From contig CAZXDT010000003.1 in NCBI GenBank assembly GCA_964639295.1, positions 1,304 to 65,303 on the forward strand: a DNA stretch of 64,000 nt. Reading direction: 5' to 3'. Under the pieces are notes generated by a model. That model was not told where the DNA came from. It was given only the letters and a program-made list of their open reading frames with translations, and ran no database searches. This DNA is from an uncultured Candidatus Saccharibacteria bacterium (GTDB lineage: Bacteria; Patescibacteriota; Saccharimonadia; Saccharimonadales; JALRHH01). A program made the position numbers and the translations under genes. Below, in pieces: positions 1,386-61,436 of the stretch (the first letter of the stretch is position 1; each line of letters starts with the position of its first letter).

Positions 1386-1515
1386 TTTGTTTTTCCTTTT
1401 ATATACTTTGTTTATTTTTTAGTATTAATGACCTATTTTTACCATAATACTCTGGGTAAACGCAAGCACTTTCACAGCATAGTTTTCCACAGGTAAGCAC
1501 TGAGGTGCACGCACT

Positions 1516-1666
1516 CCACACTTGAGATCATTTGGATTTGTTTGAGCGAAACGTAAAGGAGCCGTACTTAGGTACGGTGACTGTGTATCGTAAGCAAACA
1601 AATTCGAAGGAGCCAAGAGGCTGGCGGGTTACAAGCTCAGCTTGTAAGCAGGCCAGCCGGTGTGGG
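1516..1666 (+). ncRNA. Family-1 structured intergenic element, copy A (candidate ncRNA or REP-like repeat)
   Basis: Closing stem CCACAC/GTGTGG; hairpin GCCGTAC-ttag-GTACGGT; terminal hairpin GGCTGGC..TTACAAGCT-ca-AGCTTGTAA..GCCAGCC. Homologous to copies at 27247, 37809 and 61161. Confidence 0.6.
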
Positions 1667-1680
1667 GTGTGTTTGCAGTA

Positions 1681-1720
1681 AATAAATAAACGCCCTCTGC
1701 AATTATATGCAGGGGCGTTT
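1681..1720 (-). terminator. Rho-independent terminator after paralog 2
   Basis: - strand stem cgcccctgca/tgcagagggcg followed by tttatttatt. Confidence 0.75.
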
Positions 1721-4858: not shown

Positions 4859-5155
4859 CTGTTCTTCCCTCTCGGGACCCCCATATGGATTTACTGCCAT
4901 TATTGCACACAACACTAAAAACACAACCACTTACGAGGAGGGGTTGTTAAAGTGTGTACGCAACGCTGAACTGCAAAACAAGCTGAGAACGGTCAGTCAG
5001 AAGTTCAAAAATGTGCTTTACAGTGTCCAGTAATGTTTGTGTTGTTTGTACCAAATGTACCGTAGCATATTTTTACTACAAGCACAAGCGTGACTGATTG
5101 CGGTTATGTTTTTGACTGCAAACATAGTATTATTGATGCAAGAAGACCAGAGGCC

Positions 5156-6154
5156 ATGGATAATAAATCAGAAGATACAAATCAGCCAGAAAAACCTGAG
5201 AACACTGAGCCAGTGTCCGGTTCAAGCAACGCTGAAGGCGAAAGCCTTGAAGGCAGTACTGATGCAACTGCGTCTTCTGATGTAAAAGTAAGCGCGCCAA
5301 AACAAAGCATTGGTAAGCGTATTCAGGGACTCATAACAGGCTTGAACATCTACCTTATACTGTTTATTTTCATCGTGGTACTTGCCGCAGGTATCGTTAT
5401 GATTGGCATTCAGAAAAACAAAAAAGCTGCCACGCCAACTACTGTTAACACCCAGACGCTATCCGCTGACGAACTCAAGAAAATCGCCGAAAGCGAACAA
5501 AAAGTTGGCGATCCTAAGTCAACGCTATCTATCGAATCTAATGCTATCTTCAGCGGTAAAGTACTGATCCGTGACAGTTTAGACGTTGCGGGAACTATCA
5601 AGGTGGGTGGGGCATTGAGTCTACCAGGCATTAGCGTGTCCGGGGAGAGTAGCTTCGACCAGATCAAAGCTAACAACCTAACTATTACCGGTAACACGGC
5701 TATCCAAGGTCAATTAAGTATCCAAAAGGGTATAACCAGCAGTGGCGGTGCAAGCTTTGGTGGACCTATCTCTGCCCCTATCTTGACGGTTCAGAGCCTA
5801 CAAATCAGTGGTGATTTACAGATCACTCGACATATTGACGCAGGTGGTGGCACACCAGGAAAGGTAGATGGCAGTTCGTTAGGATCTGGCGGAACCGTAT
5901 CTATTAGTGGTAGCGACACAGCTGGGACAATAACCATCAATACCGGTGGTGGCCCGGGTGCAGGTTGTTTCGTGACCGTTAACTTCACGCAGAAATTCAG
6001 TGGCAATCCACACGTTGTTGTATCCCCTGTTGGTTCAGGTGCGGCGTCACTCCAGTACTACATAAACCGAAACAGCAGTAACTTTAGCCTCTGCACCGCC
6101 AATGCCCCAGGTGGTGGCCAAAGCTTCTCATTCGACTACATAGCCATCGACTAA
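5156..6154 (+). CDS. Membrane-anchored protein with Gly-rich beta-helix-like repeats
   Basis: ORF. ATG 5156 is preceded by AGAGG; the ORF track starts at GTG 5090. One TM segment, then repeated G-x-L/I-x-V/I-x-G motifs. Confidence 0.7.
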   Translation: MDNKSEDTNQPEKPENTEPVSGSSNAEGESLEGSTDATASSDVKVSAPKQSIGKRIQGLITGLNIYLILFIFIVVLAAGIVMIGIQKNKKAATPTTVNTQTLSADELKKIAESEQKVGDPKSTLSIESNAIFSGKVLIRDSLDVAGTIKVGGALSLPGISVSGESSFDQIKANNLTITGNTAIQGQLSIQKGITSSGGASFGGPISAPILTVQSLQISGDLQITRHIDAGGGTPGKVDGSSLGSGGTVSISGSDTAGTITINTGGGPGAGCFVTVNFTQKFSGNPHVVVSPVGSGAASLQYYINRNSSNFSLCTANAPGGGQSFSFDYIAID

Positions 6155-6294: not shown

Positions 6295-6618
6295 TTAGAT
6301 ATCGAGAAAAACCACGACTTCGTCAGCTTTTACATGCATAATCCCACGCGCAATCTTAATATGCTCCTCATTATCATCCGTACGCACAATAATATCGCCT
6401 GAGTTTAGCAATGTCATGAAGTTGTGGTGCTTGGGCAATATGTCGAAAGTACCGGTATCGTTCACACCGGAAATACTGTTTGCCTCACCGTCAAAATACA
6501 CTTTAAATGGTGCATAGACCTTGACGTGCATCGTCTTGCCGTCAACTCGCGATTCAGGAATTGCGGCATTGGTAGCGGTATCTTTATGCTCGACAGGTTT
6601 GTTGTCATCTTCTGGCAT
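6295..6618 (-). CDS. atpC: F1 ATP synthase epsilon subunit
   Basis: Last gene of the atp operon. Epsilon-like beta-sandwich sequence (ILPKHHNFMTLL...). The true start may be the internal MHVKVY. Confidence 0.8.
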   Translation of the reverse strand: MPEDDNKPVEHKDTATNAAIPESRVDGKTMHVKVYAPFKVYFDGEANSISGVNDTGTFDILPKHHNFMTLLNSGDIIVRTDDNEEHIKIARGIMHVKADEVVVFLDI

Positions 6619-24931: not shown

Positions 24932-25312
24932 TGGTGGAGCTGGCGGGGTACCGCCCCCCGCGTCCGCTAGTTTATCTAATTAGTCTATCCTACAGGTATA
25001 GTTTGCTTGAATACAACATGGAGTGAAAGCAAACAAAAGTCCACGAGGTTTGATCCTTGTCTTAGTCCGACTACGGATCAATTGCCGGAAGCATCCAGAA
25101 ATATATGTTACGACTAGTGCTATCTGGCGTCACTCTAGGCGCAGCTGTAGGCAATTAAGCTACAGCGAAAGCAGGCTCAGGGAACAAACGTGCCTTGAGG
25201 TCTGCAATCAAAGAAGTGCGATCTGCAATTACTTTGAGTTTGTCTATAACGCTGACAAGCGACCTGCTGATCTAACTGATAAAGTCCAACGTCGAGCTTA
25301 AAATTCAGCCCC
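24932..25312 (-). ncRNA. ssrA: tmRNA (SsrA)
   Basis: 5' GGGGCTGAATTTTAAGCTCGACG. 3' ...CCCCGCCAGCTCCACCA. Acceptor stem with a G3-U pair. Internal tag ORF ...ADRTSLIADLKARLFPEPAFAVA-TAA. Confidence 0.9.
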
Positions 25313-26687: not shown

Positions 26688-27224
26688 ATGAGCAAAACAC
26701 ATATTAGAAAGTTCAAGTGGGCGTACATACTGCTGTTTTTTGTACTAGCTATTGGTTATGTCATTTTCCGTTTCTTTAACCCCAGTGTTGGTTTTACCTA
26801 CTATGAACCCTCCTACGTACCAGCAAACATATCTGTTAAAACCAAAAGAATAAGCATCACTCGGGGGAATGTTCAGGTAGAGCAAGACTTCAGAACAGAA
26901 GATTGGGTCTACAGCATTAGTGAGTACAAATCCGACGAGTCAATTGGTGACGCAAAGCAAAACTACGACCCTAAAAGCATTACACCAACATGCGAGATCC
27001 GAATTTCACCAGTCAAGACACAGTATCGCTTATGTCACTGGATTGACTATGGAAAAATCGACGTTCACGAAATTAAGTTTATAAAGAATGGTACTTTTAT
27101 AGATGCACAAATTCCTACTGAACTAAAGGATCAGATCACCGTAGATCAGCTAGACACCTTTGTTGATTCGTTCAAGAAAAAGAGTACGATTGGCCTGCCT
27201 GTACTCCGTTCTAACGGAGCCTAA
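26688..27224 (+). CDS. Membrane-anchored hypothetical protein (178 aa)
   Basis: ORF with an N-terminal TM segment. Confidence 0.7.
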   Translation: MSKTHIRKFKWAYILLFFVLAIGYVIFRFFNPSVGFTYYEPSYVPANISVKTKRISITRGNVQVEQDFRTEDWVYSISEYKSDESIGDAKQNYDPKSITPTCEIRISPVKTQYRLCHWIDYGKIDVHEIKFIKNGTFIDAQIPTELKDQITVDQLDTFVDSFKKKSTIGLPVLRSNGA

Positions 27225-27246
27225 TAACTTGTGCGGACAACAGGTT

Positions 27247-27397
27247 CCACACTTGAGCCAATTTGGATTTTCTTCTGCGAAACGTAAAGGAAACGTATCT
27301 AAATACGTTGACTGCGTATCGTAAAGAAGAAAATTCGAAGTGGCCAAGAGGCCAGCGGGTCATGGGCTCCGCTCATGAGCAGGCTGGCCGGTGTGGG
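27247..27397 (+). ncRNA. Family-1 structured intergenic element, copy B
   Basis: CCACAC...GTGTGG closing stem; hairpin AACGTAT-ctaa-ATACGTT; terminal hairpin GGCCAGC..TCATGGGC-tcc-GCTCATGA..GCTGGCC. Confidence 0.6.
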
Positions 27398-27405
27398 ATC
27401 TGTGA

Positions 27406-28632
27406 CTACCAGTAGTGGTGAGCGATCCAGAAATTGTATGCTCCCGACCAGCTGCCATATCGCCCGGATGCATAGCCACTACACCACTTCAGCTGTGTTA
27501 CTGGGTTTGTTCCCCAGTCAGCACCAGCTGTAGCCATCTTGCTGCCTGGGAGTGCCTGACAGAGACCAAACGCACCACTTGGGTTACGTGCAGCCGCGTT
27601 CCAGCCTGATTCACGGCTGACAATGTAGTTCACATACGGGAAGTCAGATCGGCTGATACCTGCAGCAAGCATTGTTGCTTCCTTATCTGCTGGGATAAAT
27701 ACAGCGCGGCCACGGGCAACAATCTGTTTAACTGGTTCTACTGCGACAATCGACTGTATTTCCTTACGACCAACTTCTTTGCCGTTTTGTGTATCTACCT
27801 GATAAGTAACCAATTTTTTACCTGGAGTTCCCTTTTGCCTGACGGCAACAGATCCAAATGACAGACTCGGGTCCTCAATAGTCTGTACTTCGTTTGCAAT
27901 TACTTGTTCCTCAGTAACTACCTTACTACCGTTACGGACAACAAAAATCTGTGACTGAGGTGTAATTGGCGTCTCTGTTGCAGGCTGCACAGTATCGTCC
28001 TTAGCTAGTTCTACTTTCTTTTCCTTGAGCAACTCACCGACGGTCTTTGCGTGCGTACGTACTGGTACCTGCGTGCCGTATAAGTTCAAGTTAGTTGGCG
28101 TAGCGCGATCAATAACAACCTTCTCACCAATCGCTCCATCACGGAGGAAGTCAGTCTCCATTTGGCTTTCAATCTTGTCCTCCGGGAAGACATCTACTCC
28201 AGCCTGGCTCGCCACACTACGCGGTGTTGTAGCAGCGCTAAAGGCAAATGTCTTACGACCGTTATCAATGACGGTTACTGGACGTGATCGATAAATATTA
28301 ATACGGAACTTCTCATCCAAGATTGGCGTGTCAGCGCTCGGCTCAACAATATCACCTTCGTTAAGCGGAATGTTTACACGCTGCAGGAACTCACCAACTG
28401 TCTTGGCACGAGTTGGCAGTGTCTCTTGTTTCTTGTCATGGCTAAAAACAACCAAGTGGGAATCAGACGGAACAACCTTTTCTGCACTCGTAGAAACAAA
28501 AATAGCTAGAGATGCAAAAAACAGCACCAATATCATTACCACTGGGATAACTAATGGGTGTTTGTGCCAATTGTGGCGGGTCAACCATGCAATTGGCTTA
28601 CGCCAATGTATTGTAGGTTTAGGTATAGTCAT
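27406..28632 (-). CDS. RpfB/YabE-like cell-wall protein (DUF348 repeats, G5 domain, C-terminal transglycosylase-like domain)
   Basis: N-terminal TM; repeated KTVGE(F/L)L..(V/I).L motifs; G5-like VRQKGTPGKKLVTYQV; C-terminal SRESGWNAAARNPSGAFGLCQALPGSKM. Confidence 0.8.
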   Translation of the reverse strand: MTIPKPTIHWRKPIAWLTRHNWHKHPLVIPVVMILVLFFASLAIFVSTSAEKVVPSDSHLVVFSHDKKQETLPTRAKTVGEFLQRVNIPLNEGDIVEPSADTPILDEKFRINIYRSRPVTVIDNGRKTFAFSAATTPRSVASQAGVDVFPEDKIESQMETDFLRDGAIGEKVVIDRATPTNLNLYGTQVPVRTHAKTVGELLKEKKVELAKDDTVQPATETPITPQSQIFVVRNGSKVVTEEQVIANEVQTIEDPSLSFGSVAVRQKGTPGKKLVTYQVDTQNGKEVGRKEIQSIVAVEPVKQIVARGRAVFIPADKEATMLAAGISRSDFPYVNYIVSRESGWNAAARNPSGAFGLCQALPGSKMATAGADWGTNPVTQLKWCSGYASGRYGSWSGAYNFWIAHHYW

Positions 28633-31357: not shown

Positions 31358-32542
31358 TTATGATTTTGAGTAGGTGAAGGTTACTGTTTTGAGTGCTTCT
31401 AGCAACCGGTTGTAGCTTGATTGCTTGAAGACATCTAGCACTTCTGCCTTTGTGTTGCTGGCTTCAATGCTCATATCACCCTCACCGCACTTATCATAGG
31501 GACCCATTACTGGCTTATTCAGATTGGCTTGCGTCATAACAATTGTTTCACCCGTTTTGCTTGTTTTAGCACGGAAGCAGAGATTACTAGTTGTTTTACC
31601 CAAGACAGTATATTTAGTGGTCAGTATGTATCCGTATTGTGTCTCCGTAAGTGCCGTCTCTTCATAAGTTGGGCATAGGTTCTTTGCAGCATGTGGTGTG
31701 TCCGTCTTTGCTGGTGTACACCTGCCCATATTGCCTACTGGGGCTATTAGTGTGTAGCCGACCGCATTATCTGAAGTAGAATCGGAAAAACTTACACGTA
31801 GTGCCCCTGTCTGCGCATCGGAAGTATCACTGCCTGGCCAATTACTTGGGATTACTATTGAAAAGTTATATAGTTTTCCAGTTATTTTCCTTGTTGCAGG
31901 TTGTTCTACTACGGGCTGAGGAGTCGATGATTGCTGAACTGCAGCTGGTTTGTCTTTTATAAAGTCAAAGGGAACTTTGAACCCAAGATTGATTGCGCCG
32001 GCATCTGCTGCCAGGCCAAGGCCTACCACTACTGGCAATAATGCACCGAGCAGCAAGAGGAATAGTCTGTTATTGCGGCGGGAGCGCTCCTGGCCAATGG
32101 GCACAAAGTATTTCTTATCTTCTACGAGCTTTTCTACGAGCTCCTGACGTTTTTGCTCTTCAACATCAACTGCTTCTTGTTTCTTCTTATCGGTAACCTG
32201 ATCGAGTACGGCGTCAACAACAGCGCCGTCACTAACTTCAGAATCAGATTCCTCTGATTTTTGCTCAGTTTCTGATGCTGGCTCTTCTTGCTCAGCAGTA
32301 TCGGAGGCCTCGGCTTCTAAGGGCTTTATGATCTTGTGTGCTGCTGATGGTGCTACCGCCTCTTTAGGAGCTTCTTCATTCTGTGCTAATGCGTCTGTAG
32401 TAACCTCTGTTTCAGATTCAGTGGCGTTGACCATAGGGTCTTTAAGAACTGCATGCCCGCTAATAATTGGACGAGAAGTAGCATCTGCGGGCGTTTCGCC
32501 CGGCTTGGATACATCCATGACGGGTTTCTTAGCCGCTGCCAT
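31358..32542 (-). CDS. Membrane-anchored protein with an acidic N-terminal region, unknown function
   Basis: ORF; central TM (LFLLLLGALLPVVVGLGLAA); no motif recognised. Confidence 0.7.
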   Translation of the reverse strand: MAAAKKPVMDVSKPGETPADATSRPIISGHAVLKDPMVNATESETEVTTDALAQNEEAPKEAVAPSAAHKIIKPLEAEASDTAEQEEPASETEQKSEESDSEVSDGAVVDAVLDQVTDKKKQEAVDVEEQKRQELVEKLVEDKKYFVPIGQERSRRNNRLFLLLLGALLPVVVGLGLAADAGAINLGFKVPFDFIKDKPAAVQQSSTPQPVVEQPATRKITGKLYNFSIVIPSNWPGSDTSDAQTGALRVSFSDSTSDNAVGYTLIAPVGNMGRCTPAKTDTPHAAKNLCPTYEETALTETQYGYILTTKYTVLGKTTSNLCFRAKTSKTGETIVMTQANLNKPVMGPYDKCGEGDMSIEASNTKAEVLDVFKQSSYNRLLEALKTVTFTYSKS

Positions 32543-33330
32543 TACACGCTTTCCTTTTCAATGGTTTGTAAGCGATATGCTGCATCAACAATACCAGAGA
32601 ATTTATGGTAGTTAAGGCTGGCACTACCGACAAGTACGCCGTCACATCCATCAATTTCCATATATCCACGAGCTAATTGATCATCAACGCTGCCGCCATA
32701 TAGAACTCTGACTTTTTCGGCTGTCTTAGCACCGTACAGCTCACGGATCTGGTGACGTATAAAGTCAAATTGTTTCTGAATGTCACTTGGCTTAGCGAGC
32801 TCACCGCCAAAGGTGCTGATAGCCCAAACGGGTTCATACGCAATCACAATATTCTCTATGTCTGCAGCAACAAGGTCGCTGAGCGCGGAGGTAATTTGGT
32901 CGTGTAAAACTTGCTTGGTTTCGCCGTTGTGGCGTTCGTCGTGTGTTTCACCGACACACAAAATCGGCATAATGTCATTACGGACGGCGGCCGTTACTTT
33001 ATCACGTACTGTTTCAAGTGACTCATTAAAGTAGATTCGCCTTTCGGAGTGACCAATAATCACGTAGTGCGCCAAATCCTGAAGCATTGTAAAGCTGACT
33101 TCGCCGGTATAAGCACCTTGATCCTTATGAAAAGCGTTCTGCGCAGCAAGCCGGAACTTGCGACGATCAATCTGCATACTGAGTGGCTGTAATACCAGCA
33201 TACTAGGTGCCAAAACTACTTCAATATCCCTGTGAATCTTGATACGTTCGTGCAAACGATGCAAAAGAAGACTCGCCTGAGAAGTATTCAGGTGCATTTT
33301 CCAGTTTCCGACGATTAGTTTCTTTCGCAT
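32542..33330 (-). CDS. tpiA: Triosephosphate isomerase
   Basis: GNWKMH, IIGHSERR, AYEPVWAI. Confidence 0.95.
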   Translation of the reverse strand: MRKKLIVGNWKMHLNTSQASLLLHRLHERIKIHRDIEVVLAPSMLVLQPLSMQIDRRKFRLAAQNAFHKDQGAYTGEVSFTMLQDLAHYVIIGHSERRIYFNESLETVRDKVTAAVRNDIMPILCVGETHDERHNGETKQVLHDQITSALSDLVAADIENIVIAYEPVWAISTFGGELAKPSDIQKQFDFIRHQIRELYGAKTAEKVRVLYGGSVDDQLARGYMEIDGCDGVLVGSASLNYHKFSGIVDAAYRLQTIEKESV

Positions 33331-33346
33331 AATACTTACGCTAATC

Positions 33347-34639
33347 CTACTCCTTATTTAACAGAGCATCAACTCCCGGTAGGGATTTTCCACTCATAAG
33401 TTCCATGCTCGCACCGCCGCCAGTAGAAACATGGTTGAAGCTATCTGTTAGTTTGCGGTCTTCTATATACCCAACCGTGTCGCCACCGCCAAGTACTGTG
33501 AACGGTTTGTGCCCAAACTGACCAAGCATAGCTTCGACCAATGTTTCAGTGCCATGTGCGAATGGCCCTATGGGACCCTGCACGCCATTAGTTTCCGTTA
33601 CGCCGAGTGCACCATTCCAAATAACCGTGTTAGCTAATTGCATACCACCAGCGATGAAAGCGCCAGAGAATGGGCCCACATCGAGAATCATCTCGTCTTC
33701 GGCGACTTCACTAGCAAAACGTTCAGGGCGCTTTGGGTAGTTTTCAATATTTGCAATCACGTGTGCATCCCAATCAACAATACGTGTCTGAGTTGTGCCA
33801 TCCACATTTTTGGCAACCACGCCATCTTGTGGCAAGTAAAAGACAAAATGTTGCTCAGCCGCCTTTTTCTTGGCCTTTTCAATTATTTCTTTGGCGAGCG
33901 GTACTTCATCCGGGTCAGCCTTACTTTTACCGACATGTATTCCCTCTGCAAGCAAGAATGTATTAGCCATGGCGCCCCCAACTGCTACAAAATCAGCAAT
34001 ATCTACCAAGCGATTCAGAATATCTATTTTGTCTTCTATTTTTGAGCCCCCAATAACTGCCATTAACGGACGATTTGGGTTTTCCATGACATTTGTGATG
34101 GTATCGACTTCTTTTTCTAACAATAATCCGGCGACACCCGGGATATATTTAGGAATTTCTGATACTGATACTGCACCATGGTGCACCACGCCAAAGGCAT
34201 CTTGTACGAATACATCAGCATATGAGGCTAGCTCCTTGGCAAAAGCTTCGTCGTTCGACTCTTCGCCAGGATTGAAACGAACATTTTCAAGCATTAGAAT
34301 CTCGCCAGATGGAAGGTCAGTAACAGCTTGTTTTGCTATATCTCCGACGCAGTCATCAACAAACCGAACGGTAGTACCAAGTAGTTGCCCCAACCTACCC
34401 GCACAGGGCTTGAGGCTGTATTTAGTGTCACGGTTGCCTTCTGGGCGGCCAAGGTGCGAGCATAAGATAATTTTGCAATTTTGTTCGAGTAGATATTGGA
34501 TGGTTGGTAGTGATTTTTTGATACGGTAATCATCAGTAATAACGCCTTTTTCATCCAAAGGTACGTTGTAATCAACTCGCACAAGAACACGCTTGTCGCG
34601 TAAGTCTATTTCTCGAATCGTCTTCTTATAAAAGCTCAA
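33347..34639 (-). CDS. pgk: Phosphoglycerate kinase
   Basis: RVDYNVP, SHLGRP, GGGDT. Confidence 0.95.
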   Translation of the reverse strand: MSFYKKTIREIDLRDKRVLVRVDYNVPLDEKGVITDDYRIKKSLPTIQYLLEQNCKIILCSHLGRPEGNRDTKYSLKPCAGRLGQLLGTTVRFVDDCVGDIAKQAVTDLPSGEILMLENVRFNPGEESNDEAFAKELASYADVFVQDAFGVVHHGAVSVSEIPKYIPGVAGLLLEKEVDTITNVMENPNRPLMAVIGGSKIEDKIDILNRLVDIADFVAVGGAMANTFLLAEGIHVGKSKADPDEVPLAKEIIEKAKKKAAEQHFVFYLPQDGVVAKNVDGTTQTRIVDWDAHVIANIENYPKRPERFASEVAEDEMILDVGPFSGAFIAGGMQLANTVIWNGALGVTETNGVQGPIGPFAHGTETLVEAMLGQFGHKPFTVLGGGDTVGYIEDRKLTDSFNHVSTGGGASMELMSGKSLPGVDALLNKE

Positions 34640-36869: not shown

Positions 36870-36885
36870 ATCTCGAGGGGAGTCG
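36870..36885 (-). repeat. 16-nt copy of the tRNA-Glu 3' end (third copy)
   Basis: atctcgaggggagtcg is identical to 37402-37417 and 37585-37600. It lies 2 nt beyond the stop codon of 36888..37358. Confidence 0.85.
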
Positions 36886-36887
36886 TA

Positions 36888-37358
36888 TTATCTTTGGCCG
36901 CGAATGCGTTCAATAATGCTTGTTGTCGAGACGTCACCTTCCGTACGTTCAACAACTTGCAGATGTGATGGATCCATAATGTTCCAGAAACGTGGGTCCT
37001 CACCATCAGTCGCATATAGATCTGGCTGTAGCTGAGCCACGATTTCTGCATGCACTGGGTCGATTTCGTCTGGGGGGCTTGTAGCCGGGTCAACGAATAC
37101 ATAATCCACAATTTTAAGCGCATCAAGCATCTCTGCCCTTTCGCCTTCAGGAATAATTGGCCTATCATCACCCTTACGAGCCTTAACCCTATCATCACCG
37201 CTCATCATGACAACCATAATGTCACCAAGAGCCTTCACTGTATCCAAGTAGTGCTTGTGGCCAACATGAAGCAAATCAAAGGTACCACTTGTGAGGACTA
37301 TTTTCTCGTCTTTGTGTTGGTTACGAACTTCTGCTAGGTTTTCAAGTCGTATAATCAT
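36888..37358 (-). CDS. Cytidylyltransferase-family nucleotidyltransferase (HxGH type)
   Basis: SGTFDLLHVGHKHYL motif. Start set at ATG 37358 (6 nt after the -10 hexamer); the ORF track starts at 37364. Confidence 0.8.
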   Translation of the reverse strand: MIIRLENLAEVRNQHKDEKIVLTSGTFDLLHVGHKHYLDTVKALGDIMVVMMSGDDRVKARKGDDRPIIPEGERAEMLDALKIVDYVFVDPATSPPDEIDPVHAEIVAQLQPDLYATDGEDPRFWNIMDPSHLQVVERTEGDVSTTSIIERIRGQR

Positions 37359-37364
37359 TGACAT

Positions 37365-37400: not shown

Positions 37401-37534
37401 GATCTCGAGGGGAGTCGAGTCACCTTCGGCGACCCCGCGACTTCTACCATGAAAGCACAGCTTTCAGGTGAAGATCACCTTGCGAATTGCCACTGGCAAT
37501 TCTCACCCTGTTACCGGTAACAGGAGTTCGAGTC
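37401..37534 (-). other. E1: tRNA-Glu 3'-half-derived composite module with an 87-nt structured insert
   Basis: Four parts: an inverted partial tRNA copy; a direct copy (palindrome CCTGTTACCGGTAACAGG, 37507-37524); the insert at 37419-37505; and an exact 18-nt tRNA 3' end at 37401-37418. Confidence 0.7.
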
Positions 37535-37579: not shown

Positions 37580-37654
37580 TGGTGATCTCGAGGGGAGTCG
37601 AACCCCTGTTACCAGGATGAAAACCTGGTGTCCTAACCGTTAGACGACGAGACC
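37580..37654 (-). tRNA. tRNA-Glu(UUC), CCA encoded
   Basis: Manual cloverleaf: GGTCTCG acceptor stem, anticodon loop TTTTCAT, T-arm GGGGTTCGACTCCCC. Confidence 0.95.
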
Positions 37655-37720
37655 GTACTGTGGCAAACATAATTCTGCCAATTGCAACCAAAAAATCATA
37701 ACATAACAGAGGCCAATTGA

Positions 37721-37752
37721 AAACCCCTCCCTAGTGAAAGAGAGGGGTTTTC
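37721..37752. terminator. Bidirectional hairpin terminator
   Basis: AAACCCCTC...GAGGGGTTT flanked by A and T runs. Confidence 0.6.
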
Positions 37753-37808
37753 TGGCCTATAGGCCGGAGCGGTCAGTCAAACTACTCGTTTGGCTGGGAC
37801 CGACATAT

Positions 37809-37959
37809 CCATACTTGAGACAATTTGGATGCGACTCTGCGGAGTACAAGGAGCCGTACTAAAGTACGGTGACTGCACCCCGCAAAAAGAGGCAAGTTCA
37901 AATGGTCCAAGAAGCCAGCGGGTCGCGAGCTCCGCTCGTGAGCAGGCTGGCTGGTATGG
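37809..37959 (+). ncRNA. Family-1 structured intergenic element, copy C (most divergent full copy)
   Basis: Closing stem CCATAC/GTATGG; stem GCGGAGTAC/GCACCCCGC; hairpin GCCGTAC-taaa-GTACGGT; terminal hairpin AGCCAGC..TCGCGAGC-tcc-GCTCGTGA..GCTGGCT. Confidence 0.6.
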
Positions 37960-37968
37960 AATGTCGGG

Positions 37969-39378
37969 TTAGCTACGACGAGCTAACACAAGGCGGTGAG
38001 CCATAGCACCAGCTACTGTAATAGCAGCAAAGATACCAAGGATATCGCCAGCACCAGTATCTACCAACTTAGTTGGAGTCTCTGGAGTGTTGTAGTTTAC
38101 TTTACCTTCACATACGCTTGTCTGATCAACGTCATTAACATTGAATCGAACAGTTGCGGTAAGTGAATATTCACCATCTTCGGCGTATGTGTGCTCTACA
38201 TTTGCTACCTTGTCAGTAACAAGTGGCGTAGAACCATCACCAAAGTCGTATGTTACGTTCTTGAACGTAACACCGTTCTTGGCAGTGTACTTAACACCGA
38301 GGTTGACCTTACGGCCATCAAGCTTAGCAACCTGCAAGAGATCACACTTGTACTCGGGAGCTGTAGTTACACAATCCTTTTGTACGTTAACCGTCGCAGA
38401 GTCGTTGTATTGACCAGTTTGGTCAGTATCAACAACTGCGATGTTCTTGATGTTGTTCATGCCACAAGCAAGACTTGTGCCTGGGTCTACTGTTGCCACA
38501 AATGTGATCAACGCAGAAGCACCTGGCAAGAGTGTGCCGACATTTTTACGGCCACTGAAGAAAGCGTTTGCTTCATCAGCAGTCATAACCGTACCATTGT
38601 ATGAACCGTAAAACTTCTTGGCTGTGCCAGGGACGAATGTTACGCCCTTTGGAAGTGGGTCACGGAGGTATACGTTAGTAAGGTTTGTGTTACTCAAGTT
38701 CTTAGCTTGAACAATGTATTCAACACGAGCACCAGGCTGTGCAACTAAGTTGTCAGTAGCCTGAGTTGTGCCACCTTCATTGTGCACGTACTTGTAGATA
38801 CCAACTGATGGGATCTTAACACGAGCCATGAAAGTAACGGTTGCTTCGAACTCGTGACAAGGCTTAACATCTTCAATAACTGCACCACTAAGGATAATGC
38901 TATCGTTGATTTGCTGTGTCACAAGGTTCTGGTCGGTACGAGTACCAACGTTGTGCTTCCAGTAGACGCTACCAGGAATAAATTCTAGGTTAGCGTCTGC
39001 ACGGTTTAAGTTAACCGTAGCGGTGTCGGTAATGGTGTTGGTGTTATCACCCTTCATCGTTACCTTTACAACTTGGTTCGTACCAGCAGCAGTTGGCATA
39101 TCAATCTTGATTTTAAAGTTTTCCGCAACACGGTTAGATTCCGGTAGTTCGCGGTTGTGGTAGTAGACAGAGAATTTTACAACTTCGTCATACTTCGCAT
39201 TTGTGCTTGTCTTGTATGTAGTTTCACCAGTAGTCTGGTTGGCTACGCCAATAGATCCTTCCATGAGGACATCAACTGCCATCACAGAGTGGATTGGAAG
39301 TGCAATCAAAGCAAGTAATGTAACCATAAATAGGCTCACTCGCTTTGGAGCACGCTTTAGGTATGAAAATAGTTTCAT
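37969..39378 (-). CDS. Cell-surface repeat protein (DUF11-like beta-sandwich) with a C-terminal sorting-signal-like tail
   Basis: Signal peptide. C-terminus LVDTGAG, then a hydrophobic stretch, then RLVLARRS. AAGGAG RBS. Confidence 0.8.
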   Translation of the reverse strand: MKLFSYLKRAPKRVSLFMVTLLALIALPIHSVMAVDVLMEGSIGVANQTTGETTYKTSTNAKYDEVVKFSVYYHNRELPESNRVAENFKIKIDMPTAAGTNQVVKVTMKGDNTNTITDTATVNLNRADANLEFIPGSVYWKHNVGTRTDQNLVTQQINDSIILSGAVIEDVKPCHEFEATVTFMARVKIPSVGIYKYVHNEGGTTQATDNLVAQPGARVEYIVQAKNLSNTNLTNVYLRDPLPKGVTFVPGTAKKFYGSYNGTVMTADEANAFFSGRKNVGTLLPGASALITFVATVDPGTSLACGMNNIKNIAVVDTDQTGQYNDSATVNVQKDCVTTAPEYKCDLLQVAKLDGRKVNLGVKYTAKNGVTFKNVTYDFGDGSTPLVTDKVANVEHTYAEDGEYSLTATVRFNVNDVDQTSVCEGKVNYNTPETPTKLVDTGAGDILGIFAAITVAGAMAHRLVLARRS

Positions 39379-59623: not shown

Positions 59624-61153
59624 ATGGGCATTATGTCAGATACAAACGAGAAAATTGGTCACCTTATTTATCAAGTACGACAAGAACGCGGTATGACGCA
59701 AGCAGAGTTTGCACGCAAGCTCGGTACCAGTCAATCAGCCGTTAACCGTATAGAACACGGCAAACAGAATCTCAGCCTTGAGACACTCGGCCGCATCAGT
59801 GATGTACTGAAGAAGCCCTTGATTACCCTTGGCACCAACGCGATGAACTTCAAAATTGAAGGTGGCCATGAACTCAGTGGGACTATCCAAACAAATGTAT
59901 CCAAGAACGCTGCGGTTTGTCTCTTATTTGCTGCCCTACTCAATAAAGGAACAACGCGGTTCAAACGTATGCCTCGCATTGAAGAGGTCTACCGAATTAT
60001 CGAAGTGCTGACGAGTATTGGTGTCGGTGTTAAATGGCTACCTGGTAATGATTTAGAGATTAAACCCCCTGCTGAAATCAACATGAGCAAGATGGACAAT
60101 GTCGCTGCACGTAAAACCCGCAGTGTCATTATGATGCTTGGCCCACTCATGCACCTGTTTGACGATTTCCGGATCCCATACGCTGGTGGCTGTAAGCTTG
60201 GTACTCGTACCGTTCAGCCGCACCTGTTTGCTCTTGAGGAATTTGGCGTTGATATCATCGCCAAGACCGGCTTCTACCAGGTTAATGTAACCAAGAAGCA
60301 GCCAGAAGAGATTGTGCTGTACGAATCTGGTGACACCACTACAGAAAACGTCATTATGGCTGCTGCCAAATTTGACGGCGAAGTAACTATCAAGATGGCT
60401 AGTGCTAACTACATGGTCCAAGACCTGTGTATCTTCCTTAAGAAACTTGGTGTCAAAATTGACGGTATTGGTACCAGCACACTCAAGATCCGTGGCGTAA
60501 AAGACATTAAGAAGAACGTTACGTATTCACCAAGCGAAGACCCTATTGAATCTATGACCTTCATTGCTGCTGCAGTTGCTACCAACTCAAAGCTCACTAT
60601 TTCTCGCTCACCGATTGAATTCCTGGAGCTAGAACTCCTTAAGCTCAAGAAAATGGGACTCAAAGTTGATGTATCGGAAAAGTACAAAGCCGATAACGGA
60701 CACACTGATCTTGCGGACATTACCGTCCATAAACACAACGGCGAACTACGTGCGCTAGAAGAAAAGATCTATGCTCGTCCCTTCCCTGGGCTTAATATCG
60801 ATAACCTGCCACTATTTGTACCAATTGCCGCAGTCGCTAAAGGCCGCACATTGATCCATGACTGGGTCTATGAAGAACGCGCGCTGTACTACACAGAAAT
60901 GCGTAAACTAAACGTCAACGTCACCTTAGCCGATCCACACCGTGCATACATTGACGGGCCAACCAAGTGGAGTGCAGCTGATGTCGTCTGCCCACCTGCA
61001 CTGCGCCCAGCAATGCTGCTTCTTATTGGTATGTTGGCTGCAAATGGTGACTCTGTGCTACGTAACGTCTACTCCATTAACCGTGGATATGAAGATTTTG
61101 CAGAACGACTCAGTAGTGTCGGGGCGCATATCTCCCTAATGCACGAGATTTAG
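59624..61153 (+). CDS. murA: XRE-HTH domain fused to UDP-GlcNAc 1-carboxyvinyltransferase
   Basis: Residues ~10-65 form an HTH (RGMTQAEFARKLGTSQSAVNRIEHGKQN). The rest is MurA-like (SKNAAVCLLFAALL; active-site loop GGCKLGTRTV). The start may be ATG 59633. Confidence 0.9.
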   Translation: MGIMSDTNEKIGHLIYQVRQERGMTQAEFARKLGTSQSAVNRIEHGKQNLSLETLGRISDVLKKPLITLGTNAMNFKIEGGHELSGTIQTNVSKNAAVCLLFAALLNKGTTRFKRMPRIEEVYRIIEVLTSIGVGVKWLPGNDLEIKPPAEINMSKMDNVAARKTRSVIMMLGPLMHLFDDFRIPYAGGCKLGTRTVQPHLFALEEFGVDIIAKTGFYQVNVTKKQPEEIVLYESGDTTTENVIMAAAKFDGEVTIKMASANYMVQDLCIFLKKLGVKIDGIGTSTLKIRGVKDIKKNVTYSPSEDPIESMTFIAAAVATNSKLTISRSPIEFLELELLKLKKMGLKVDVSEKYKADNGHTDLADITVHKHNGELRALEEKIYARPFPGLNIDNLPLFVPIAAVAKGRTLIHDWVYEERALYYTEMRKLNVNVTLADPHRAYIDGPTKWSAADVVCPPALRPAMLLLIGMLAANGDSVLRNVYSINRGYEDFAERLSSVGAHISLMHEI

Positions 61154-61160
61154 CCAGCTT

Positions 61161-61309
61161 TCACACTTGAGCCAATTTGGATTTTGTTCTGCGAAACGTA
61201 AAGGAGCCGTACTAAGGTACGGTGACTGCGTCACGTAAAGAGGAAAATTCGAAGGGGCCAAGAGGCCAGCGGATGGCGAGCTCCGCTCGACAGCAGGCTG
61301 GCTGGTATG
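61161..61309 (+). ncRNA. Family-1 structured intergenic element, copy D
   Basis: TCACAC...GTATGA closing stem; GCGAAACGT/GCGTCACGT stem; GCCGTAC-taag-GTACGGT hairpin; GGCCAGC..CGAGC-tcc-GCTCG..GCTGGCT. Confidence 0.6.
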
Positions 61310-61436
61310 AATGCTGGCTAACGTAGAAGATCTTCTAGGTGAGACTTGTAGCCTGTCTTTAGATACATAATGTAGCTCAACGCTATAACAATGAGTGTCA
61401 CTAATATGACTGTTCGTTGCCATTCTTTGAGGTTTT

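Follow-up and report, generated by a model that had tools for sequence, protein, structure and literature searches.

The window analysed here is a stretch of 64,000 nucleotides from an uncultured Candidatus Saccharibacteria bacterium. It carries, in tandem on the − strand, two paralogous genes that were labelled as coding for surface proteins. Both products have a hydrophobic N-terminal segment, which is the one feature behind this label and makes it plausible; neither matched a Pfam family. A block of 338 bp (508-845 and 2221-2558) is 100% identical between the two paralogs, against ~75-83% elsewhere, and this suggests recent gene conversion. In the region separating them, a sequence-only reading had noticed, at 1516-1666, a member of a repeat family, hereafter copy A, placed after the paralog-2 terminator (1681-1720), upstream of paralog 1, which starts at 1385, and antisense to the two genes. 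The layout of the open reading frames bore out this placement. The element itself was confirmed with a covariance model that set slightly wider limits (1510-1672): 1516-1666 covers the conserved core of copy A, and the paired ends extend to 1510 and 1671. Just upstream of paralog 1 lies another feature, ACCTGTGG...TGCTTGCGTTTA...TGGTAAAAA, which alignment showed to be kept in two relatives (L105 and L106) and which we infer to be the promoter of paralog 1. On the − strand, this promoter-like block falls downstream of copy A. Coordinates of all features are collected in Table 1.

Table 1. Positions of copy A, its structural parts, its neighbouring signals and other members of the family (window positions unless a contig is named).
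Feature	Position	Strand	Evidence or remark
Paralog-1 promoter-like block (putative)	1435-1500, approximate	−	ACCTGTGG...TGCTTGCGTTTA...TGGTAAAAA; alignment with L105 and L106
Copy A	1510-1672	+	R1 172.7 bits; MFE structure; covariation; absent in L105 and L106
Copy A, P1 terminal stem	1510-1522 with 1659-1671	+	MFE structure
Copy A, long P2 arm with internal loops	1523-1615	+	MFE structure
Copy A, P2 apical hairpin	1559-1580	+	GAGCCGUAC-UUAG-GUACGGUGA; family signature motif, tandem G-A flanks
Copy A, junction AGA	1616-1618	+	MFE structure
Copy A, P3 hairpin	1619-1658	+	MFE structure
Paralog-2 terminator hairpin	1681-1720		Outside the element; conserved in relatives without the element
Short relative without P3	6170-6292	+	R2 25.3 bits, E ~0.003 over 290 kb (E-values rough, model calibration having been shortened)
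Copy B	27241-27403	+	R1 180.1 bits
Copy C	37802-37966	+	R1 158.2 bits
Copy D	61155-61317	+	R1 170.7 bits
Short relative without P3 in L003	L003 5463-5583	+	R2; single long hairpin, same apical motif
L017b	L017 4321-4484	+	In frame, no stops, inside the pcrA/uvrD helicase gene

The covariance model (R1) was built from four copies of the window and scored at every window position. It returned exactly four copies, A to D, all on the + strand, ~163 nt long and scoring 158-180 bits. Copy B fills the gap from the stop of an ORF at 26688-27224 (+) to the stop of a G5/SLT-domain gene at 27406-28632 (−). Copy C is bounded on one side by a terminator-like hairpin (37719-37751), beside the tRNA-Glu gene, and on the other by a − strand gene with DUF11/PKD domains, whose stop codon is at 37969. 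Copy D sits exactly between the stop of murA (61151-61153) and that of a small convergent ORF (61318-61320), beside a sortase gene. A shorter relative, found with a second model (R2), forms just one long hairpin that carries the apical motif of the family (−61 kcal/mol, z = −5.5) and fills the gap between an ORF at 5090-6154 (+) and atpC at 6295-6618 (−). The window thus holds five copies in 64 kb; counting those of other genomes described below, there are 10 elements from 4 genomes, about 120-175 nt in size. Identity among the window copies was 68-82%. Copy A is nearer to the copies of two other genomes, L001 and L003 (81.6%), than to those of its own genome (68-76%), and therefore subfamilies are common to several genomes. 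No near-identical copies were seen in the 64 kb examined of this genome, so there is no sign of recent bursts. The GC content of the elements is 0.50-0.55, against 0.46 for the window.

Two RNA genes of the window deserve a note. The 3′ end of the tRNA-Glu gene (37580-37654, −) is repeated twice upstream (36870-36898 and 37402-37430, the gene's own being 37585-37613), with a cytidylyltransferase-like ORF (36888-37364) enclosed by the repeats, which resemble scars left by integration events at this tRNA gene. An ordinary tmRNA gene was recognised by Rfam at 24932-25312 (−), with 59.1 bits.

All full-length window copies share a common three-way junction fold. The inner part of the terminal stem P1 (YCCRCAC / GGUGYGGR) is conserved and inverted; its outer 5-9 bp are different in every copy, yet complementary. 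The long P2 arm is capped by an invariant hairpin, GAG-N-CGUAC...GUACG-N-Y-GA, and in the long form a side hairpin, P3, is attached at a conserved CCAAGA junction. When ~1 Mb of DNA was scanned for the motif GA-NN-YGTA...TACR-NN-GA with a paired stem, it was found only in the 10 elements. Pairing was then assessed by a covariation test on 8 copies from 4 genomes, over 65 pairs, with 500 shuffles and, as a control, partners slid by 1-3 columns. The proportion of paired cells was 93.8%, against 32-42% in the slid-partner controls, and double changes were present in 40 of the 65 pairs; not one of the 500 shuffles reached the observed values. What defines the family unit is a fold and not a block of sequence. 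Copy A had been singled out beforehand as informative on structure conservation because its outer stem appeared swapped and its inner stem replaced. Both observations held, and so did the value of copy A for testing how the structure is conserved. In P3, copy A has GGCUGGC/GCCAGCC where the other copies have GGCCAGC/GCUGGCC, and GUUACAAGC/GCUUGUAAG where the others have GUCRYGRGC/GCUCRYGAG; these are genuine compensatory changes.

The fold belongs to one strand. As RNA, the + strand of copy A reached −82.3 kcal/mol (z = −9.9), and the − strand −52.7 kcal/mol (z = −5.1); DNA energy parameters ranked the strands alike (−42 for + and −29.9 for −). Each window copy forms 61-65 of the 65 pairs and has 5-9 G·U pairs but only 0-2 A·C mismatches, and therefore the + strand is the folded strand under constraint, as the sequence-only reading had it for copy A.

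This family appears to be uncatalogued. With Rfam 15 at gathering thresholds, only tRNAs and tmRNA were found in the window, L001, L003 and L017, and a permissive search with copies A, B and D gave noise only, with E-values of at least 0.2 and different families each time. A protein-coding reading was rejected: a frame of 49-54 codons is open in A and B and is broken by stops in C and D, and no reading frame is conserved across the intergenic copies. We found no paper on interspersed repeats or non-coding RNAs of Saccharibacteria or Patescibacteria.

To delimit the distribution of the family, a strict pattern of the 5′ domain was scanned over one genome per species (185,579 species). Two true copies were obtained, in L001 (164 bits) and L003 (154 bits), both MAGs of uncultured Candidatus Saccharibacteria; matches in Sutcliffiella and in cyanobacteria were due to chance. 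The L003 contig also holds a short element, which occupies an entire intergenic gap. A pattern of the 3′ domain gave one true contig in JGI metagenomes, L017, and the 13 other matches out of 14 were chance hits in GC-rich DNA. L017 carries two copies that have diverged, scoring 59 and 33 bits with R1 and 101 and 93 bits with R2; they lie 4 kb apart in opposite orientations. L017 is likely a distant relative, judging by the gene order pgk-tpiA-hypothetical-pcrA that both have (window 31358-34639, −; L017 1180-4050, +). A viral origin was discarded, since two pattern scans of IMG/VR, with a subsequent model search of 79 loci, yielded nothing; likewise, blastn against phage and plasmid collections gave no match. 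Among closer genomes, 75 kb from three relatives with 82-88% MurA identity were free of copies. The family is patchily distributed among relatives. A Logan contig (L107, from SRR8931241) identical to the window ends at window position 61192, that is, 39 nt into copy D, as expected for a short-read assembly that breaks at a repeat.

Relatives that lack the element reveal what its sites look like without it. In relatives with 92-95% MurA identity, gene maps show 1-12 nt at the site of copy D, between murA and the small convergent ORF, and in the DNA of one of them (L104) this site is empty, with the two stops 12 nt apart. The sequence-only reading had proposed comparing the intergenic region of the tandem paralogs in related genomes. 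This comparison was run, and the region measures 264 nt in L105 and 242 nt in L106, against 393 nt in the window, and no model match was obtained in either even with filters off. Since the same tandem paralogs occur there with no element, copy A is a lineage-specific insertion. For the short window copy, the gene map of a relative has atpC overlap its convergent neighbour, with no gap, so the element is probably absent there too. Orthologous sites without copy A, without copy D and probably without the short copy thus identify these three as insertions. We also considered that the element might insert into the hairpin loop of pre-existing terminators; this was rejected, the empty sites of copy D and of the short copy being 0-12 nt long and free of any hairpin. 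No consistent direct repeats of the target-site duplication kind flank the 10 elements, although old duplications could have decayed, and no common target motif or conserved flanking sequence was found around the copies.

One copy lies within a gene. L017b is part of the reading frame of a pcrA/uvrD helicase and lengthens the protein by about 50-55 residues, placed between its TFTNKAA and GTFHG motifs. In BLASTP against the window's orthologue (53% identity), a gap of ~50 residues falls exactly at L017b. Its fold is the most degraded of all (50 of 65 pairs). When peptides from all six frames were searched against a protein database, no further copies inside annotated proteins came up.

Orientation relative to neighbouring genes varies from copy to copy. 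B, D and the short window copy each sit in a gap between convergent stops that is exactly their size, copy A and both L003 elements lie between tandem genes and antisense to them, and the L001 copy lies between the divergently oriented comF and hsp20. On a larger scale, all five window elements are on the + strand, opposite most genes from 1 to 47 kb, and this strand, on which they fold, has a negative GC skew; the elements of L001 and L003 are likewise opposite most neighbouring genes. This may be a bias of orientation. It was also seen that 3 of the 10 elements (copy C, L001 and L017a) are ~150-750 nt from tRNA genes, which may be chance. Signals of their own were not found on the elements. 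No sigma-70-like promoter was found around copy A, stop codons flank copies B and D directly and leave no space for a promoter or terminator belonging to the element, and no T-run follows B, C or D on either strand. As for partner genes, neither a transposase nor a reverse transcriptase nor any other candidate was noticed in the neighbourhood of the 10 elements, neighbours being judged mostly from ORF translations; those identified through Pfam or source gene maps are housekeeping or cell-envelope genes.

Copy A had been taken to be, possibly, an antisense or small RNA: if transcribed from the + strand, it would run convergently into the 3′ end of paralog 2. The parts of this proposal that concern family membership and the folded strand stand. 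The discrete convergent RNA does not find support, nor does the regulation of the paralogs that it implied. Indeed, a + strand terminator pattern matches at 1694-1715, inside the paralog-2 terminator, which therefore separates copy A from paralog 2 in that direction as well. The opposite option, copy A as part of a paralog-1 leader transcribed from the − strand, does not fit either: copy A is framed by a terminator and a promoter-like block, both conserved in relatives, and is therefore outside the leader. Because it is outside the leader, separated by a terminator and absent in relatives, copy A is unlikely to serve the two paralogs as a dedicated antisense RNA or regulator, and most likely it has no role devoted to them. 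At most, copy A would bring a strong hairpin and ~170 bp of spacing between the terminator of paralog 2 and the promoter of paralog 1. Thus, it should not be taken as an antisense regulator of the paralogs unless transcript data come to say so.

What, then, is the element? We regard it as a previously uncatalogued repeat, with a unit of about 165-175 nt, found in some Saccharibacteria, and most likely a selfish mobile element instead of a dedicated regulator of the paralogs. In its full form, our preferred reading is on balance probable: copy A would be an insertion of a non-coding, non-autonomous, MITE/RPE-like mobile structured repeat that moves through a single-stranded, probably RNA, intermediate. 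Several observations argue for a mobile repeat, namely the insertion polymorphism, the patchy distribution, the varied orientation, the lack of signals of its own, the harmless gaps in which copies sit, the genic copy, and the contig that breaks within copy D. The strand asymmetry of the G·U pairs points to a single-stranded intermediate, and RNA is the more likely kind. The active lineages of the element would spread through a single-stranded copy of the + strand, RNA more likely than ssDNA, which a protein encoded elsewhere in the genome would probably recognise. Selection for competence in spreading would keep the fold through compensatory changes, and insertions would persist where the harm is small: in a gap between convergent stops, in the space from a terminator to the next promoter, or, with the frame kept, in a protein loop that tolerates them. 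Some features speak against a mobile repeat. No candidate partner gene was noticed near the copies, as judged mostly from ORF translations, and the 64 kb examined hold no near-identical copies. The outermost terminal repeat is not conserved and there is no target-site duplication, and a three-way junction with conserved nucleotides is more elaborate than the simple hairpins of MITEs and RPEs. Besides, the near-perfect pairing of the intergenic copies, outer stems included, could mean that selection acts in place, hence a host function. The copy-specific outer stems would have been either made at insertion or kept paired by such selection.

A host function is what the strongest of the alternatives assumes. 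The elements could be domesticated cis-acting elements, serving as two-way transcription stops, protectors of RNA 3′ ends or insulators between crowded transcription units, comparable to REP/BIME, ERIC or SPRITE, a reading that we find unlikely. In its favour, B, D and the short copy occupy convergent-stop gaps in which relatives have 0-12 nt and no terminator, copy C is placed between the stop codon of a gene and a terminator-like hairpin, and copy A directly adjoins a terminator; moreover, both strands fold better than shuffles, and pairing is nearly perfect in each intergenic copy. However, B, C and D are followed by no T-run on either strand, the L001 copy is placed between divergent genes and L017b inside a gene, and close relatives do without the element at the same sites. 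Furthermore, a two-way terminator would not be expected to show the asymmetry between strands seen in G·U pairs and A·C mismatches.

Quite unlikely, in our view, is that the copies are genes of a multi-copy small RNA, acting in trans or sequestering a protein, cut from longer transcripts at P1 and spread by duplication. The very strong covariation and the conserved unpaired nucleotides of the junction and of the apical hairpin would suit an RNA of this kind, as would the pairing of the 5′ and 3′ ends in a stem of ~18-22 bp, a trait of many stable RNAs; B and D, directly 3′ of + strand genes, could be cut from 3′ UTRs. Against this reading, A and C have no + strand gene upstream. An independent small-RNA gene would have its own promoter and terminator and a conserved position, whereas the copies have no such signals and the element is missing both in close relatives and at orthologous sites. 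In addition, one copy is inside the helicase ORF, and no Rfam family matches.

Distinctly unlikely, too, is a unit that moves at the RNA level, with the three-way-junction fold itself serving as the substrate that is propagated. In one version, it would be retro-mobile and copied by a reverse transcriptase encoded elsewhere; in the other, it would be a very small, self-excising, intron-like RNA. A complementary, copy-specific outer stem would then be created at each insertion and not inherited. A unit of this kind would explain the strand-specific G·U pairs, the unrelated outer stems though the empty sites hold no hairpin, and the survival of a copy inside an essential helicase gene. Two further readings were rejected: a retron-like one, whose hairpin order fits the weaker − strand only and for which no reverse transcriptase gene is nearby, and a likeness of the apical hairpin to domain V of a group II intron, for which it is too short and has no Rfam support.

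Finally, it is very improbable that the elements are orphan guide or scaffold RNAs (the ω-RNA of TnpB/IscB, the bridge RNA of IS110) or hairpin ends recognised by HUH enzymes (PATE of IS200/IS605, REP/RAYT). Multiple copies, a structured and strand-specific unit, no target-site duplication, and the location of all five window copies on one strand are features shared with single-strand transposition systems. Yet no transposase-like ORF was noticed by the 10 elements, as judged mostly from ORF translations, and most neighbours being judged in this way, the adjoining enzyme gene that marks an ω-RNA or a bridge RNA was not seen; the Rfam models of ω-RNA (HEARO and IS605-orfB) gave no match, and no conserved target sequence lies beside the copies. 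The strand expected for IS608-type elements is not the one with negative GC skew, on which the present elements fold, and the two L017 copies are oppositely oriented 4 kb apart.

Saccharibacteria and other Patescibacteria have tiny, streamlined genomes, and the repeat described here, which gave one of the clearest covariation signals obtainable from ten sequences, has no Rfam family. Should the mobile repeat be selfish, as we think most likely, then reduced genomes of epibionts would carry active structured repeats that land even in frame in essential genes, as in Rickettsia, and such repeats would also break short-read assemblies. Should it turn out to act as an RNA of the host or to move at the RNA level, a new class of RNA would be added to a phylum in which hardly any regulatory RNAs are known.

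The mobile structured repeat resembles several known systems. REP and REPIN sequences, which RAYT transposases mobilise, are long hairpin units that evolve as wholes with compensatory changes; recognition takes place on the single strand, and the target is not duplicated. A REPIN consists of two REP sequences of ~25 nt and occurs in hundreds of copies in genomes that have a RAYT gene. The Saccharibacteria repeat is likewise a long hairpin unit with compensatory changes and without target duplication, but it has no doublet organisation, and no RAYT gene was seen in the 64-kb window. Prokaryotic MITEs (Correia, ERIC, BOX/RUP/SPRITE, QMITE) are small, multi-copy, non-coding and variable between strains, and their transcripts are stable stem-loops; they are often at gene ends, where RNase III cleaves the paired ends of some and others behave like terminators (PMC10969869). 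Like them, the repeat is non-coding, shorter than 500 bp and dispersed in several copies, and it shows presence/absence polymorphism, at copies D and A and, from gene maps, at the short copy. In contrast to MITEs, it has no target-site duplication, the sequence of its outermost paired ends varies between copies, and it is not AT-rich; no transposase-like ORF that might belong to a parent insertion sequence was noticed beside it, in 64 kb here and in loci spanning 5-8 kb in the other carriers. The structure strongly favours one strand and conserves many G·U pairs. The repeat also fits an operational class of the Breaker laboratory, the "mobile/repeat sequence candidates," which are covarying structured motifs with several copies per genome in inconsistent orientation (PMC11109978). 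Members of that class are often linked to transposase or integrase genes, a link not seen here, and the paper makes no mention of Saccharibacteria or TM7.

Of the published kinds, those nearest to the repeat are prokaryotic MITEs and, most of all, Rickettsia palindromic elements (RPEs) (PMC10969869). RPEs are non-coding repeats of ~100-150 bp in the reduced genome of an obligate symbiont; they have a stable predicted fold and occur between genes as well as, in frame, within protein genes that are unrelated to each other, and no transposase is known for them (PMC10969869). RPEs are plain palindromes, whereas the Saccharibacteria repeat has a three-way junction and a conserved apical motif; here, a single genic copy was seen, and an open frame is not kept across the intergenic copies. 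As the host belongs to Saccharibacteria and not to Rickettsiales, the two are likened by features, sequence homology not being expected across phyla. The features they have in common are size, dispersed copies, insertion polymorphism and, in one case, L017b, the in-frame insertion into a protein gene, pcrA/uvrD.
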